Below, in pieces: positions 7,894-64,000 of a stretch of 64,000 nucleotides of DNA. The position numbers and the translations under genes are program-made. The stretch is from assembly GCA_951406725.2 (NCBI GenBank), contig OX597833.1, forward strand, positions 47,492,001 to 47,556,000, in the 5' to 3' direction. Positions within the stretch are counted from its first letter, which is position 1. Each line of letters begins with the position of its first letter. This stretch comes from Octopus vulgaris. Its lineage: Eukaryota. The notes under the pieces were generated by a model, which was not told the origin of the DNA, made no database searches, and was given only the letters and a program-made list of their open reading frames with translations.

Positions 7894-8909
7894 TTTTAAG
7901 TAACCGAATGACCTTCACTGTCCATTAAGTTCATTTGTTTTCTGGTACGACTGAAAGAAAATTTATGACTAGTGGTACACTTAATGACGGACACTGGGTG
8001 GGATGATATTTTCAGGTTAGCCTATACATCCTTTTCACTGAAGGAAGCATCTTCTTACTTGCATTATCAGTTCCACAAGAAAATTTGAGCATTCAGATTT
8101 AAATCTAGCAAAACCATCAATAATTGAATGTTGAGCTTTTCAGGCCAACAATTTCAGAAGAGAGATATGTCGGTTACATGGCCCCTCAGGGCTCAACTTC
8201 TACTTATTTTATCGATTCCAAAAGGATGAAGGGCAAAGTCGACCTCGGTGGAATTTGAACCCAGAACGTTCTTCCCTACCTTGCAGGGGTTGATTTCAGC
8301 TATCAAAAACATCTTTGATAAAACAGGCAAGACTACCTATTTCTTTACTACCCACAAGGGGTTAAACACAGAGAGGACAAACAAGGACAGACAAACGGAT
8401 TAAGTCGATTATATCGACCCCAGTGCGTAACTGGTACTTATTTAATCGACCCCGAAAGGATGAAGGGCAAAGTCGACCTCGGTGGAATTTGAACCCAGAA
8501 CGTTCTTTCCTACCTTGCAGGGGTTGATTTCAGCTACCAAAAAACATCTTTGATAAAACAGGCAAGAATACCGTCATATTTGCTTAAGAGTAAACACACT
8601 GAATACAGCAATGCAATCGATATAAACATTGTATCATCGACTGATATCCCGTTCATCTTTTTATTTCTTCGCTAGAAATTTTCTTTTTCTTTTTCTTTTT
8701 TTTTTTTTTTTTTTGTTTGGCCACTATCATATAATTTTCTAGCTCTGTCAACTCGTCTATCTTCGATCCTGCTTGAAAGTAAAGCAGCGGGGAGTCCAAT
8801 TGTTCTAATACGACTTCAATTGCTTCTTTTTTTTACGTGATATAATCTTGTTTGAGTGAACTTTGGAATTTTATTCTTTCCTGTCTCGTTTTGAATACTT
8901 TTCATATCG

Positions 8910-10183: not shown

Positions 10184-11454
10184 AATAATAATAATAAAAA
10201 GATAGGCTACAGCAAATATTCTGCTCAATACCACATATTTGCGTGTCAGTTGTTTGACCGTAACCAGTTGAGCATGTCCCTTAGTGACTGACGATATGTG
10301 CATCTCTGATCACAAGCAGAAGTAGTGGGGGAGCATCATAGCCGTGTGTTGAAAGGAATTCTTAGAGGTTTGGATAATTTACCTTTGGAAAAATGGGTGA
10401 TTCATTCAACATCCTTAAACAATCCTTATTCAGGGACCTTTTGAGCGGGATGGATTACTCGATCAGAAGAAAATTCTAACTGAACTAACTGAACTGCATA
10501 ATAATAATAATAATAATAATAATAGTGCTGGAGTCGGAGAGATGCAAGAGCTTATGGGATTTCCCTCTTCAAACGGATAAGAAGTTAGAAAATAAACCAG
10601 TCATAACAATAATAGACAAGGAAAAGTGGAGTTGCTTACTTCATCATGTCCAGCTGATTCCAGGATTTGGAAGGAAGAGGATGAAAATGTCTGGCTCATA
10701 GGGCCGGTTTCCTTGGCGTGTAGGTTCCCCATTTGGACGGGACGCCGGTCCGTCGCAGGTGAGCTGCAAGCTGCAGGAGGAAAGAGTGAGAAAGTTGTGG
10801 CGAACGAGTCAGCAGAAGTTCGCCATTACCTTCTGCCAGAGCCGCGTGGAGCTTAGGTGTTTCGCTCATAAACACACACATCGCCCGGTCTGAGATTCGA
10901 ACCCGCGATCCCTCGACCGCGAGTTCGCTGTTCTAACCACTAGGCCATGTGCCTCCACTTTTTAAAATATAGTTCCTTAAAATCTGAAATATTATACCAC
11001 CGTGGTCGATTTTAGCATTCATCCTCTCGTATGTGCCAAAAATTGAAATTATCATCATCATCATTATTATTGAGTAAGAGAGCAGCGCATGCCATCAAGG
11101 TGATACTGGGGTACAAATATACAAAGCCCAATATATCCACCTTGACTACCCGTATGATAAGGATACACCAGCCATCACAACCATATGTGCGCGACATGGT
11201 AATCTCATATCAAGATAAACAGCACATGACCTTGCTTGCAGGTGAGGCTCATGAACAAACACATCTCCCGGTCTGAGATTCGAACCTGCGATCCCTCGAC
11301 CGCGAGTCCGCTGCTCTAACCACTAGGCCATGTGCCGCCACCTGTTGTAAGTAGAACGAAAGAAAAGAAAAACGAAAAGAAAATAGAGTGAAAAGTGAAA
11401 AGTGAAAAGTTCCGAAATGTTTTTTTTATATAGACTATAGGCTATATTTTCGGA

Positions 11455-11966
11455 ACTTTTCACTTTGACCGGCAGATTTTTAAAATAATTTCTAGGTAAT
11501 TATTTTAAACTTAGTATACTGGTAGAATGTGTTTATAAAACATCTTTTTCTCTTGGCTTTCTTGAGAAAATTCTGTAGTTTGTAAGATATTTGTTATTTA
11601 ATTGGATCTTTTCACTTTGACCGGCAGATTTTTAAAATAATTTCTATGTTACTAAAAAATTTTAAACTTCGTATACTGATAGAATGTGTTTATAAACATC
11701 TTTTTCTCTTGGCTTTCTTGAGAAAATTCTGTAGTTTGTAACATATTTGTTGTTTAATTGGATCTTTTCACTTTGACCGGCAGATTTTTAAAATAATTTC
11801 TATGTAACTAAAAAATTTTAAACTTCGTATACTGGTAGATTGTGTTTATAAAACATCTTTTTCTCTTGGCTTTCTTGAGAAAATTCTGTAGTTTGTAACA
11901 TATTTGTTGTTTAATTTCTTGCATTTCGGCAATTTTAAAAATCTGCTGGTCAAAGTGAAAAGATCC
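11455..11966. repeat. Three tandem ~157-bp units of a GGATC-terminated MITE
   Basis: cttttcactttgaccggcagattttt recurs near 11456, 11608 and 11764; the block closes with the inverted end aaaatctgctggtcaaagtgaaaagatcc. Confidence 0.8.
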
Positions 11967-14143: not shown

Positions 14144-14626
14144 CTTATTTTATCGACTCATGTCTAGTAACCCAACTATTTAAAATATTCAAACGCCGAG
14201 AAACAAACAATTCGAGGACTAGTTTTACCATCAAATGTTAGAACCCAAACTAAGTTGTAAATGTGCGTGATAACAGAGGCAAACAAATTTTCTATTCTCA
14301 TTGTTTACTGAATAGATTCACAGGTTCAGTTCGGTCGGAACTTTACTCTTTTCTCCTTTGTCCTTTTCCCCCATAATGTTATTGGAACTGTAACGAGAAC
14401 CAAGCCTAAATTCGAACCATAGTCCTCAGATTTTCCCAGTCTAGAATCACGACCCTATTTCCATAAAAGAAAAAGAGTCACCTTAAAAAGTATAAATACA
14501 TACACGAATGTAGTGTCACCATTTAGCACTGGCTGAAGCTGCAACTTCGGAGGAAGCGTGCAAATTTTCTTGCCAAATGGATTCTAGAACCTTCTGGGCC
14601 GATAAATATATGAACTATGGTTCCTT

Positions 14627-15393
14627 AAGGCGGCGAGCTGGCAGAATCGTTAGCACGCCGGGCGAAATGCGTAGCCGTATTTCGTCTGCCGTTACGTTCT
14701 GAGTTCAAATTCCGCCGAGGTCGACTTTGCCTTTCATCCTTTCGGGGTCGATAAATAAAGTACCAGTCATACACTGGGATCGATGTAATCGACTTAATCC
14801 GTTTGTCTGTCCTTGTTTGTCATCTCTGTGTATAGCCCCTTGTGGGTAGTAAAGAAATAGGTATTTCGTCTGTCGTTACGTTCTGAGTTCAAATTCCACT
14901 GAGGTCGACTTTGCCTTTCATCCTTTCGGGGTCGATAAATAAAGTACCAGTTACGCACTGGAGTCGATATAATCGACTTAATCCATTTGTCTGTCCTTGT
15001 TTGTCCTCTCTGTGTTTAGCCCCTTGTGGGTAGTAAAGAAATAGGTATTTCGTTTGCCGGTACGTTCTGAGTTCAAATTCCGCCGAGGTCGACTTTGCCT
15101 TTCATCCTTTCGGGGTCGATAAATAAAGTACCAGTTACGCACTGGGGTCAATATAATCAACTTAATCCGTTTGTCTTCTGTGTATAGCCCCTTGTGGGTA
15201 GTAAAGAAATAGGTATTTCGTCTGTCGTTACGTTCTGAGTTCAAATTCCACCGAGGTCGACTTTGTCTTTCATCCTTTCGGGGGTCGATAAATAAAGTAC
15301 CAGTTACGCACTGGGGTCGATATAATCGACTTAATCCGTTTGTCTGTCTTTGTTTGTCTTCTGTGTATAGCCCCTTGTGGGTAGTAAAGAAAT
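14627..15393 (+). mobile_element. tRNA-derived SINE family B: one headed unit plus three headless units
   Basis: Head ggcggcgagctggcagaatcgttagc; ~180-bp units joined at aaagaaata|ggtatttcg; ~21-bp TSD (atatat[g/a]aactatggttcctt) at 14606-14626 and 15394-15414. Confidence 0.88.
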
Positions 15394-16027
15394 ATATATA
15401 AACTATGGTTCCTTCTTTGGAACAAAAGTTTGAAATAATAGATCTAAGTGTAATCACTTTTCAACTCTGTCTTTAAAACAATACTGATAAGTCTACAAAA
15501 ACATTTTGAAAGAGAATGCTGTTATACAATAGCCCATCCGATTTTAGTACCAAAGACCAAAGTAAAACGTTATATAAGGAAACAAAGTGTACTTTATACT
15601 TATTCTGAATTTCAAAAAAAAAATGTACATAGATAATCGTTGAATACTTTCTAATAGCAGAGGCTATATTGAAAAATATTCAAATGTTATGCTTGCACTC
15701 GTGTAAACAACACAAGCAAAAATAAACAAAAACGTGGAGATATTTTTTCTACTGGAGAAACGAAGATAGATTTAAAGTGCCGTGTTAAGTAATTTAAATT
15801 TATACACGCAGTTCTTTTCGACAATCCCAAGCTAACTGTGTACATTGAATATCGGAAACAATACAAATAAAATAGATGAATTTTTATACAGGTACATAGC
15901 AAGGGTCAAGTGGGTGGCCCGACTCGGGTGATGCCTTTATGGGAGGCGCAGCAAAGTGAAGGGCTGTGTATGTATGTATGTATGTATGTATGTATGTATG
16001 TATGTATGTATGTATGTATATATGCTT

Positions 16028-34679: not shown

Positions 34680-35300
34680 AATTCTTTTTACTGAAGGCAC
34701 AAGACCTTAAGTTTTGGTGGTAGAGACTAGTCAATTACAATTGACTGTGGAGAGAGGAAAGGCAAAGTTGACCTCAACAGAACTTGAACTCAGAATGTGA
34801 GGACAGATGAAATACCTATTTTTTTACTACCCACAAGGGGCTAAACATAGAGAGGGCAAACAAGCACAGACAAACGGATTAAGTCGATTATATCAACCCC
34901 AGTGCGTAACTGGTACTTATTTAATCGACCCCGAAAGGATGAAAGGTAAAGTCAACCTCGACGGAATTTGAACTCAGAACATAACAGCAGACAAAATACC
35001 TATTTCTTTACTACCCACAAGGGGCTAAACACAGAGAGGACAAACAAGGACAGACAAACGGATTAAGTCGATTATATCAACCCCAGTGCGTAACTGGTAT
35101 TTATTTAATCGACCCCAAAAGGATGAAAGGCAAAGTCGACCTCGCGGAATTTGAACTCAGAAGGTAACAATGGGTGAAATGCCGCTGAACATTTCGCCCG
35201 GTGTGCTAATGTTTCTGCCAGCTCACAGCCTTAACAGATAAAATACCACTAAGCATTTTTTGTCCAGCTTGCAAACAATACTGCCAACTTGCCACCTTAA
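34680..35300 (-). mobile_element. Young two-unit family-B SINE nested in an older family-B SINE
   Basis: Old head at 35298-35248, duplicated target ggtattt(t/c)atctgt at 35247-35234 and 34816-34803, old tail below 34800. Confidence 0.75.
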
Positions 35301-44903: not shown

Positions 44904-45570
44904 TACAGCTAGGACAGGGGAATCCATAATAGTACAGCTAGGACAGGGGAATCCATAATAGTACAGCTAGGACAGGGGAATCCATAATAGTACAGCTAGG
45001 ACAGGGGAATCCATAATAGTACAGCTAGGACAGGGGAATCCATAATAGTACAGCTAGGACAGGGGAATCCATAATAGTACAGCTAGGACAGTGGAATCCA
45101 TAATAGTACAGCTAGGACAGGGGAATCCATAATAGTACAGCTAGGACAGGGGAATCCATAATAGTACAGCTAGGACAGGGGAATCCATAATAGTACAGCT
45201 AGGACAGGGGAATCCATAATAGTACAGCTAGGACAGGGGAATCCATAATAGTACAGCGAGGACAGAGGAATCCATAATAGTACAGCTAGGACAGGGGAAT
45301 CCATAATAGTACAGCGAGGACAGGGGAATCCATAATAGTACAGCTAGGACAGGGGAATCCATAATAGTACAGCTAGGACAGTGGAATCCATAATAGTACA
45401 GCTAGGACAGGGGAATCCATAATAGTACAGCGAGGACAGGGGAATCCATAATAGTACAGCGAGGACAGGGGAATCCATAATAGTACAGCTAGGACAGGGG
45501 AATCCATAATAGTACAGCGAGGACAGGGGAATCCATAATAGTACAGCTAGGACAGGGGAATCCATAATAG
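44904..45570. repeat. Minisatellite, 23 copies of a 29-bp unit
   Basis: Unit TACAGCTAGGACAGGGGAATCCATAATAG; 667 bp = 23 x 29; only point variants (GCT/GCG, GGGG/GTGG/GAGG); no spacers. Confidence 0.97.
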
Positions 45571-46559: not shown

Positions 46560-47133
46560 ATATTTCTTTACTACCTACAAGGGGCTAAAAAAAAAAGGGA
46601 CAAACAAGGACAGACAAAGGGATTAAGTCGATTACATCGACCCCAGTGCGTAACTGGTACTTATTTAATCGACCCCGAAAGGGTGAAAGGCAAAGTCGAC
46701 ATGGGCGGAATTTGAACTCAGAACGTAACGGCAGATAAAATACCTATTTCTTTACTACCCACAAGGGGCTAAACACAGAGGAGACAAACAAGGACAGACA
46801 AACGGATTAAGTCGATTACATCGATCCCAGTGCGTAACTGGTACTTAATTTATCGACCCCGAAAGGATGAAAGGCAAAGTCGACCTCGGCAGAATTTGAA
46901 CTCAGAACGTAACGGCAGATAAAATACCTATTTCTTTACTACCCACAAGGGGCTAAACACAGAGGGGACAAACAAGGACAGACAAAGGGATTAAGTCGAT
47001 TACATCGACCCCAGTGCGTAACTGGTACTTAATTTATCGACCCCGAAAGGATGAAAGGCAAAGTCGACATGGGCGGAATTTGAACTCAGAACGTAACGGC
47101 AGACGAAATACGGCTACGCATTTCGCCCGGCGT
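46560..47133 (-). mobile_element. Family-B SINE chain, three units
   Basis: Junction aaatacc|tatttcttta on the + strand near 46745 and 46928. Confidence 0.85.
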
Positions 47134-47844
47134 GAGTCCCACCTACCACAAAGGCACGCTTCAATTACAAACGCCCATCAACTGCTTTTCGACCATGAAG
47201 TTTGGTCTCAATCGAAGTAATAACTCTACTCTGAAGGCAAATCCAAGCACTCATTGGTTAGCATGACTGACAGCTGCCCCATACGAAAATTAGCATTTAG
47301 CACCGTATATAATTGGTATATTTGTGTAGCATTTATACATTCTTCAATCTAATTGTTATTCATTTTATCACTCGTTTGTTCATTAATTCAGTTTTAATTG
47401 CTTATTCATTTTAATTACTTATAGGTCAATTGATCCGATTGGGCATAAAAAAACGTATGCAAATACATATTGTATATATTGTATACATGTACGTATGTAT
47501 AAGTATTAGTATGCACAAACATACATATATATATATATATGGATACAGAATTATATATATATATATGTGTGTGTTCTTATATATATATATATATATGATA
47601 AACGTGCATACAAAAAAATGAAGTGGACAGACGTATAGATGAGCTCATTGAAACTTTCTCCAGTCCATTAAGAGTTACCTCTCTTTATTAAGAGAACGAC
47701 CACATATTTGCTGTCAGCCATCTTTTTTGTCATCCAGAGCGAGATGTTTGAAAGACAAGGATTTTCCTGTCTAGCAAAACTCAGCGTTACTGGTGAACTG
47801 TCTAGCCCAACAAACCCACTTATACACATATTCACACACACACC

Positions 47845-53619: not shown

Positions 53620-54198
53620 CTCATACCTAGGAGTAGTTAAGTTGATTACATTGACCCCAGTATTCAACTGGTACTTATTTTATCAACTCCAGAAGGATGA
53701 CAGGCTAAGTCAACCTCAGGAGAATTTGAACTCAGAATGTAAAGACAGATGAAATACCTCTTAGCATTTCACCCGGTGTGCTAACAATTTTTTTCTACTC
53801 TAGGCAAAAGGCCCAAAATTTGGTGGGAGGAGGCCAGTTGATTAGATTGAACTCAGTATGCAACTGGTACTTACTTTACTGACCCCAAAAGATGAAAGAT
53901 AAAGTTGACCTCGGTGGAATTTGAACTCAGAACGTAAAGACAGATGAAATACCTCTTAGCATTTCACCCGGTGTGCTAACGATTGTTTTCTACTCTAGGC
54001 ACAAGGCCCAAAATTTTGGGGTAGGAGGCCAGTTGATTAGATTGAACCCAGTATGCAACTGGTACTTACTTTATCAACCCCAAAGGGATGAAAGGTAAAG
54101 TCGACCGTGGCAGAATTTGAACTCAGAACACAAAGACAGATGAACTACCGCTAAGCATTTTGCCCAGCATGCTAACATTTCTGCCAGCTTGCCACCTT
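53620..54198 (-). mobile_element. Family-B-related SINE chain, three units, different junction
   Basis: Units of about 195 bp joined tail-to-head at gagtagaaaa…aat(c/t)gttagcac. Confidence 0.75.
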
Positions 54199-62533: not shown

Positions 62534-63260
62534 TTAAAGTATAGTTGAGAAAATGCAGTCCAAGCAGTAGAGAATGTATACATGTACAAATATAATACCT
62601 AGAGACTATTAGAGAACACACTATTTGGAAAGTGATGTTGGCAAAAAATAATGAATTTAATGATCTGATTAATTAGGCCTATGTATATATATATATATAT
62701 AGGCCTATATATATTTATTATATATATATATATATCTATATATATATATGTATATGTATACATATTAAATGTAGAAAATTATATAGGATAAAAGAGGGTG
62801 TTCCCAATGAGGACCCAACAGAAGGACTAGCCATTCTAGAAGACACAATGAGGGGTAAAGCAATTAAGCAGATGAAGATAGGGAAAAGCCCTTGTCAGGT
62901 CAGGTCAGATGTGGGGGAATGCACCATTGCAGTGGATTGCTGCATTCACCATTTGTTGGTATATTTCTGGGTCCTCCCAGGCAATCCATCAAGCAAAATC
63001 TCAGTTAGTCCCCATCTTTGCAAGATACCTCTCATCTGCCATGATTACGTGGGATGTGGTTGGTCAACACAAACTGACAACCCAGGCAGATCCTCAATGA
63101 AGGGAACATGGTAAACAGGATCTAACATGGCCAAACAGTCTGAGCTGGTGCTCCTGAACCATACAAGTAACAGGACACATCCCAGTTTCTGAGTATAGTC
63201 ATTAGTCGGATAATAAATCTGACAAATGATAACCCATAATACTGCAACGTGTACAGGTAC

Positions 63261-63494
63261 TTATTTCTTTATTACCCACAAGGGGCTAAACATAGAGGGG
63301 ACAAACAAGGATAGACATAGATATTAAATCGATTACATCGACCCCAGTGCATAACTGGTACTTAATTTATCGACCCCGAATGGATGAAAGGCAAAGTCGA
63401 CCTCGGCGGAATTTGAACTCACAACATAATGACAGACGAAATACCACTAAGCATTTCGCCCGACATGCTTACATTCCTGCCAGCTCACCACCTT
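63261..63494 (-). mobile_element. Family-B SINE monomer with TSD, inserted in RTE-like LINE debris
   Basis: TSD tgtacaggtac at 63250-63260 and 63494-63504. Confidence 0.8.
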
Positions 63495-64000
63495 GTACAG
63501 GTACCAAAGGAGTTCAGGAGGACTGTAAGGGCTCCAAGCTGTATCCATGTCTCGTCACTATAGTGCAGGACAGAGAGATGCTTAAAATGTCTTTTGGAGT
63601 AGATTGCAGCCAAATCACTAGCAAAGTCAACAGGAAGATGTCACACTCAGTGACTGATAAAGCAGAGTAATAATAATTTCATATTGTTGGATCAGGTCAT
63701 GAAAATTACAGAGAGTGTTATAGCACAAGTGATTAGGAAGAGGATTAGAAGTTCAGTTTTGTGCCAGAAAAAAGTGCCAGAACTGGTGTCATGTAAAAGC
63801 ACTTGTGCCAGTGAATATTAGCAGAATTAGAAAAAAATTGCAAGTGTGGAAGCAAAACCTGGAATTAAATGGTTTCAAATTCAACTTAGCAAAGATTAAA
63901 GTTTTAGTAAATAGAAAAAAACAGATAGGTCTCTGCTACCATCAGAGAAATAACCTTGCTAAACATGTATAAAAGGAGTAGATAGAATTTCTGTACAATG

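Follow-up and report, generated by a model that had tools for sequence, protein, structure and literature searches.

We find that family B, a tRNA-type SINE, occurs in chains in which the joins fall on a single, constant base of the head, the head being common to family B and its sister families. The explanation that we consider probable is TPRT by the enzyme of an L1/Tx1-type LINE with a preference for GGTATTT, in which the matching head of the new copy would anneal to the head of the host copy and leave no seam. Site-specific insertion of the element into its own family had been one of the readings offered by the first-pass annotation, and it is supported genome-wide by nested copies that keep the host head together with a target-site duplication (TSD), by last units that are older, star-like and drawn from three sister families, and by heads of host type. 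Head and body are common to family B and the sister families A1, A2 and A3, which have other tails, and both an A-box-like motif and a B-box-like motif (GTTCAAAT) can be read in the SINE sequence. We presume these families to be the octopus tRNA-derived SINEs OK, OR1 and OR2, which have a shared tRNA-type head and different tails and to which they are likened here by description only. Family B is a short, interspersed element of very high copy number, and TSDs were found for 43 of 73 solo copies.

Within the window, i.e. the whole stretch of 64,000 nt that was analysed, the focal array consists of one head and four units (Table 1). Its headless units stand behind a headed one, as first described, and each of the three junctions reads AAAGAAATA/GGTATTT. 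The two TSD copies form a 21-bp direct repeat with one mismatch, and together they enclose the whole array. When one mismatch at most is allowed, the junction 13-mer is found seven times in the window against 0.22 expected; three of these are in the focal array, and the others are at 34810, 34994, 46738 and 46922. The recurrence reported in the first pass thus holds for the latter four positions, and near 8337 the same site is used with letters that are only partly the same (GAAATA/GGTAGTC).

Table 1. Positions of the parts of the focal array and of related loci in the window
Feature	Position	Strand	Basis
5' copy of the 21-bp TSD	14606..14626	+	sequence; the empty-site contig of organism E has one copy only
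SINE head, 49 nt: A-box-like region, hairpin 5' arm and hairpin loop; loop variant CGTAGCC (young)	14627..14675	+	
13-bp hairpin with 4-nt loop; join site X = 14676, first base 3' of the loop	14659..14688	+	predicted fold
Unit 1 (B box, body and family-B tail, starting from site X)	14676..14859	+	
Unit 2, headless, joined tail to GGTATTT	14860..15043	+	
Unit 3, headless, 16-bp internal deletion	15044..15211	+	
Unit 4, headless, last tail	15212..15394	+	
3' copy of the target-site duplication	15394..15414	+	
Nested insertion: old sister-family head, 15-bp TSD from site X (35233-35247, 34802-34816), a full-length and a headless B, remainder of the old host	34754..35300	-	
B unit in a host that carries a private ~60-bp insert, joined at host site X; private insert duplicated on both sides	8166..8573	-	
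Three-unit chain, head 5'-truncated	46561..47134	-	
Sister-family A1 chain joined at the second head site, about head position 18	53637..54196	-	
Solo B copy; TSD begins (G/A)GTACC, a non-SINE target like site X	63251..63505	-	

The first-pass annotation had put the junction where the loop of a tRNA anticodon arm ends on its 3' side. The place is right, as the 4-nt loop of the predicted hairpin (13 bp, z -3.2) is directly followed by site X, but anticodon arm can be kept only as a positional name. The hairpin is elongated, ARAGORN called 0 tRNA genes, and Rfam returned a single chance match (E 9.3) with no tRNA and no ribozyme, a search that an undescribed ribozyme would escape. In the focal head the young variant CGTAGCC (window 14671-14676) replaces a hairpin G-U pair by G-C and converts GGTATTT to CGTATTT; it may make the head a poorer target.

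The units of the focal array do differ from each other, as had been noted, by 7 to 13 letters in 168 to 184. Despite this the four units are mutually related, judging from a variant that all of them carry and that is present in only 3 of 90 solo copies. The target of the array was of the TA kind and not GGTAT. A 952-nt contig of a related organism (organism E) joins 14612 to 15401 and represents the empty site, with the whole array absent, and in organisms B and C there are contigs that run from the last tail into the flank, showing that the element, in whatever number of units, is present there. As the array is homogenised and wholly absent in organism E, it gives by itself no evidence of stepwise growth, and it probably grew by local duplication or came as a block, a possibility outside the options named in the first pass. 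There is no run of four T within the array, hence read-through transcription is to be expected.

A genome-wide tally of the letters behind family-B tails, as proposed in the first pass, shows the joins to be non-random. The exact 23-nt B tail has 63,092 copies in the 2.8-Gb genome, and 27,618 of these (44%) are directly followed by GGTATTT. A 19-nt tail with GGTATTTYRTCYG occurs 24,287 times in the genome, and the tail followed by GGTAT and a letter other than T 3,796 times. In a sample of 197 tails, made up of loci picked by the exact 23-nt tail plus the window, a SINE body lies at a fixed offset behind 113, and 99 of those begin with GGTATTT. It should be noted that the first samples were picked by the exact young tail, which biases their upstream units towards young ones; later samples are free of that choice. 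GGTATTT outside SINEs is a common sequence (9 of 20 sites in the window, and 6 of 6 in 111 kb around LINEs), and only three unique-DNA targets in the 197-tail sample start with it, hence the heptamer alone would seem insufficient for the excess. Bodies of A1 were counted 1,920 times behind a B tail and 1,705 times with a head, by search patterns of unlike length.

Some individual loci show unusual arrangements. The chain at L120 (G000:C1:4676263-4677961) has 10 junctions with a spacing of ~185 bp, and at G000:C26:21165557-21169109 there are ~30 junctions among the matches listed, spaced by ~101 bp, which form a satellite built from the SINE junction. Two B units lie back to back and inverted at L117:2440-2760, with both tails at site X of the flanking SINE parts. 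In L214 and L219 the head loop is replaced by GAAATA, as if the chain had collapsed between GAAAT of the head and GAAAT of the tail.

Insertion prefers GGTAT-like DNA, whether inside a SINE or outside. In 19 TSDs of unique targets, which came from 49 loci picked for a downstream GGTAT, the upstream and pre-existing copy has G, G, T, A and T at 16, 18, 19, 18 and 16 of 19, respectively, and the TSDs begin where the tail ends. As the pre-existing copies read GGTAT, the preference is independent of the SINE context. Further unique targets start with TATAT, GAAT and similar. This preference is the first step of the proposed route, and it is seen directly: GGTAT-like sequence follows B tails both within SINE heads and in unique DNA, and in the latter the TSD copy that was there beforehand already reads GGTAT. 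A T is found at X+2 in 93 of the 100 listed junctions that precede TCCRTC, compared with a C in 10 of 13 headed copies; this excess of T suggests an RNA-templated or selected GGT, in a comparison that is confounded by mutated A1 and B copies. Mismatches between TSD copies number 8 in 95 for the first five letters and 9 in 224 for the rest, too few to prove templating.

The last units of the chains are often of another family than B. Among 75 chains the last unit was B in 34, A1 in 20, A2 in 2, A3 in 3 and damaged in 16. We further collected 70 B-A1 chains, picked regardless of the B tail, of which 69 were measurable; the A1 unit was more diverged than the preceding B in 53 of the 69 and less diverged in 10 (p 1.5e-7). 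Non-CpG divergence is 5.9% for the A1 last units, 5.7% for solo headed A1 copies and 3.0% for B, and in the 30 B-A3 chains the A3 unit, which belongs to the oldest family, is 12% diverged against 3.7% for the B unit. In most chains B letters give way to A letters no more than about 13 nt from X, and an A-type letter is found at X+15 in 49 of 69 last units and in 36 of 52 solo A1 copies. No signal was obtained for a correlation between the divergence of head and unit (50 chains; elsewhere equal for first and last unit), and an early idea of long homologous priming deep within the second unit was dropped.

The last units also appear to be independent of each other. Pairs that share two or more variants number 13 among the 70 A1 last units, against 17.5+-3.8 when permuted, which makes the set star-like, and the closest of the 435 pairs among the 30 A3 last units are 15% apart, with no clades. 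As the last units form no clades, the junctions must have arisen many times independently. Descent of all arrays from one ancestral multimeric master, which the first-pass annotation had put forward as the counter-case to its reading, is hence not what the 70 A1 and 30 A3 units show. Neither do the chains look like a fixed dimeric SINE of the Alu kind made from few masters, since their star-like last units come from B, A1, A2 and A3.

The same data bear on the possibility that chimeric or multimeric loci, themselves products of rare self-insertion, are read from their B head into what is left of the host and retrotranspose as blocks, in the mode of dimeric SINEs, so that most seamless chains would be daughters. 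To yield 70 A1 and 30 A3 last units without clades, such copying would seem to require hundreds of equally active sources, and the host-type heads of the B-A3 chains, described below, are not accounted for either. What does agree with it is the lack of a four-T run in the focal array, a read-through copy at L066, the young TSDs of the B-A1 chains and the homogenised long chains. Hence we suggest that block copying probably contributes, notably to long chains, but not as the main route, a role in which we give it only a slim chance.

Direct traces of insertion into a host copy are found in a minority of cases, in which the host head, a TSD and a full-length insert are all retained. What these nested loci have in common is the head of the host (or else an earlier junction), an 11-22-bp TSD that starts from X, and a full-length B (window 34754-35300, L046/L063, L089, L285, L296, L440 and L473). 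At window 8166-8573 and in L286 the host-private sequence behind X has been duplicated. One sample held 5 true nested cases against 123 seamless headed chains. The call of L214 as a nested case was false.

For the seamless majority we propose, on the precedent of R2, that the head of the cDNA pairs with the host head and that second-strand synthesis starts there; the single head that is left would then be host-derived, insert-derived or a mosaic. In the B-A3 chains the A3 marker T at head position 22 is present in 25 of 40 heads, whereas B has it in 31 of 116 and solo A3 in 31 of 35 (p 1e-4). Heads with 8 or more changes make up 10 of 42 in B-A3 chains against 8 of 126 (p 0.003), and the body behind them is young. 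Host-type heads in front of young bodies are the pattern expected if the 5' join is homologous and crossovers occur within the head.

The heads of the B-A1 chains are mostly of the insert (B) type, with the loop variant in 15 of 52, compared with 2 of 56 solo A1 and 11 of 39 solo B copies, and head CpG decay is 10% in B-A1 chains against 20%. TSD mismatch amounts to 5.1% for B-A1 (32 TSDs in 53 chains), 5.1% for B (56 in 96) and 7.7% for solo A1 (29 in 51). For B-A3 it is 7.7% (15 TSDs in 39) and for solo A3 10.5% (7 in 25), B-A3 lying between B and solo A3 with no significant difference. The contrast in TSD age between B-A1 and solo A1 has p about 0.07-0.10, and only B against solo A1 reaches p 0.05; contrasts that were suggestive in the first loci were not significant with more loci. 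With their B-type heads and young TSDs, the B-A1 chains agree at least as well with a template switch or with a chimeric RNA inserted as a block, and some of them may have come from template switches or from read-through RNA copied as a block. In L066 a B copy plus 29 nt of a second unit lies inside a fresh 22-bp TSD, hence read-through RNA has been copied at least once. For the seamless B-A1 chain L300 the contigs of organism E do not cover the flanks, and no contig of organism B or D bridges the element.

In a template switch the reverse transcriptase would begin on SINE RNA at a new site, reach X and jump to the 3' end of a B RNA, giving a seamless B-headed chain in one event. The pairing at the jump would be either that of the tail GAAAUA with UAUUUC of the hairpin arm or that of a GGUAUUU extension with the cDNA end. 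Besides the B-type heads and B-age TSDs of the B-A1 chains, the absence of the entire focal array in organism E is in line with this, and star-like last units would be expected if many loci were transcribed. It leaves unexplained, however, the nested copies with host head and TSD, the duplicated host-private sequence, the host-type heads of the B-A3 chains and the same GGTAT preference in unique DNA. The B boxes of the last units are moreover no better kept than those of solo A1 copies (12 of 69 and 15 of 69 damaged), although this test is weak and does not separate the models. We regard template switching as an unlikely general explanation and continue with insertion of B into the heads of its own and sister families as the preferred reading.

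Dimers and longer chains differ in how alike their units are. In 31 dimers the distance within (0.095) is no smaller than that between (0.098), while the units of 15 chains of three or more, the focal array among them, are homogenised (0.066 against 0.098, p 1e-4). Homogenised units, as known from SINE-derived satellites, are thus a trait of these longer chains and of the focal array and are absent in dimers. The homogenisation itself is observed, and from it we infer that units are added in chains of three or more by local expansion, i.e. local duplication, or by block copying.

A process at the DNA level only, in which one founding dimer arose and its junction was spread by unequal crossing-over, slippage or ectopic conversion, would account for the homogenised longer chains and for the ~101-bp junction satellite on C26. 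We find it very improbable as the whole explanation, given that the dimers are not homogenised, that the B-to-A switch within about 13 nt of X is too short for ordinary recombination, and that the TSDs start at X in the nested cases.

The first-pass annotation had also suggested template jumping or rolling-circle copying of RNAs cut in the anticodon loop, in which case the headless part would circularise or be jumped end to end to build the chains. This suggestion is not supported by the starts of first units. Of these, 251 of 323 begin within the first 10 letters of the head, and starts at X+1 to X+4 without a preceding tail number 4 against about 2 expected from background truncation, i.e. 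there is no clear peak of headless starts at X. The dimers are unrelated inside, the last units are often of other, older families, and Rfam gave no ribozyme. Head-free arrays of near-identical monomers, as in retrozyme-like elements, are likewise not what is seen. The location of X at the 3' edge of the loop and the homogenisation of some long chains would agree with such a cut, which we nevertheless consider hardly credible.

A search for the partner LINE had also been suggested in the first pass. Two LINE families have 3' ends to which the B tail can be aligned, and we tentatively take them to be of the L1/Tx1 type from their domain order rather than from a tree. LINE family 1 is young and abundant, has a 1149-aa ORF2 with endonuclease (PF03372), reverse transcriptase (PF00078) and zf-RVT (PF13966), and is mostly followed by (TATC)n-type repeats among the 29 ends listed. 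Many of its copies (L181 G000:C1:49500-58500; L151-L180) hold an intact 1149-aa ORF2, are 98-99% alike and end in (TATC)n or (TGTC)n. LINE family 2 is a low-copy sister, about 61% identical, with 26 nt in common with the B tail, and in most copies (30 loci) its junction falls on a single base that lies within, or at, the head of another tRNA-type SINE; loci of this family are L184, L185, L193, L196, L201, L204 and L212 (G000 C1). A pattern search for a LINE with the exact B tail gave only a sister LINE with another target, and a limited search of 30 junctions with a non-standard tail gave 0 LINEs at site X, only damaged SINE tails. Other LINE types from the search by RT family have 3' ends that do not match the B tail. 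In sum, LINEs with tail-like 3' ends were obtained and none at site X, both families being site-specific but for other targets.

A second self-junction, at head position 18 (AGAAACG/AGAATCG), is present in 13 of 70 headed A1 loci. It is used by A1 tails and by CA-variant B tails (window 53637-54196 on the minus strand, L071, L078, L116, L364, L367 and L376). The tail variant tracks the site, with 156 T and 6 C at X and 5 T and 13 C at the second site (p 9e-12; 190 loci not picked by tail variant), and the L226 junction contains slipped repeats of AAATAGGTATTT. The link between tail variant and site, along with the slipped AAATAGGTATTT repeats, points to base pairing of the target with the final letters of the RNA, although such a link would also arise if two LINE enzymes of different kinds were at work. 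Read-through RNA ending in ...GAAAUA-GGUAUUU would pair with the nicked site and so help to choose it.

Further, we speculate that the RNA encodes a heritable address, an idea we hold as possible though we would not expect it to prove right. The read-through 3' letters would copy the last target and pair with the next, and each subfamily would home on a head site of its own family, TAGT tails on GGTATTT and CAAT/CAGT tails on AGAAACG, with the matching head completing the seamless insertion. If this is true, self-targeting would be self-reinforcing and no dedicated site-specific endonuclease would be needed; about half of sister family A1 has been hit.

We consider the chains to be a real variant of target-specific non-LTR retrotransposition, the novelty of which is that the target is the element's own head. 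According to Kojima a SINE is target-specific if one target type makes up >20% of its flanks (PMC4494074, in the part available); here GGTATTT follows 44% of exact tails, and a SINE body lies behind 113 of the 197 sampled. The part of the same paper that deals with crocodilian SINEU-3 reports a strong preference for a Mariner DNA transposon, attributed to a Tx1-type LINE (Tx1-Mar), and tandem copies from sequential insertions that sandwich a TSD (PMC4494074). Family B resembles that pair in being a SINE with a preference for a repeat as target and in forming tandem copies by sequential insertion. Going by this part of the paper, it differs in that the target is its own and sister heads, that most joins are seamless and headless, and that no LINE was found at X. 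The text also lists Tx1 of Xenopus (in Tx1D), Keno, Kibi and Koshi as site-specific L1/Tx1-type LINEs with foreign targets (PMC4494074), and to these the LINEs found here, tentatively placed in the same group, are similar, as they target (TATC)n and the head of another SINE.

For R2, the part of Eickbush et al. 2013 (PMC3774820) available describes RNA with upstream 28S sequence as giving uniform seamless 5' joins, over 80% precise in an injection test, along with tandem duplications of 13-28 nt in a minority. These two outcomes are matched by the seamless and nested classes found here. As far as that part of the paper goes, R2 is unlike our case in being autonomous, with its own restriction-like endonuclease and a 28S target, whereas here the insert is a non-autonomous SINE, its own head provides the homology, and the targets are dispersed and renew themselves. 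Examples of multimers and satellites made of SINEs are the Dip/B1 multimers of jerboa and squamate sSats (PMC10702118) and the tandem SINEs of bivalves (PMC11481361), and as in those a large share of copies is in short chains, some of which become homogenised arrays. The portions of these two papers that were available concern full-length SINEs or internal segments and mainly unequal recombination, and describe no fixed head base and no age polarity between host and insert. A self-insertion system was not described in the open-access full text searched, which included portions of PMC13282606, PMC4758252, PMC5786205 and PMC13295347.

With tens of thousands of joins, family B would be a SINE that has itself as main landing site at genome scale. 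Self-targeting would represent a natural safe harbour, and a way in which dispersed repeats can turn into tandem arrays and satellites. The chains also provide a natural data set on the roles of RNA-DNA pairing and endonuclease in site choice, and on the resolution of homologous 5' joins, with crossovers readable in mosaic heads that number thousands. A further consequence is that, when repeats of this genome are annotated and dated, units of unlike age are mixed. Other tandem repeats in the window, at 11452-11916 (156 bp x3) and 44904-45570 (29 bp x23), are unrelated to the chains.
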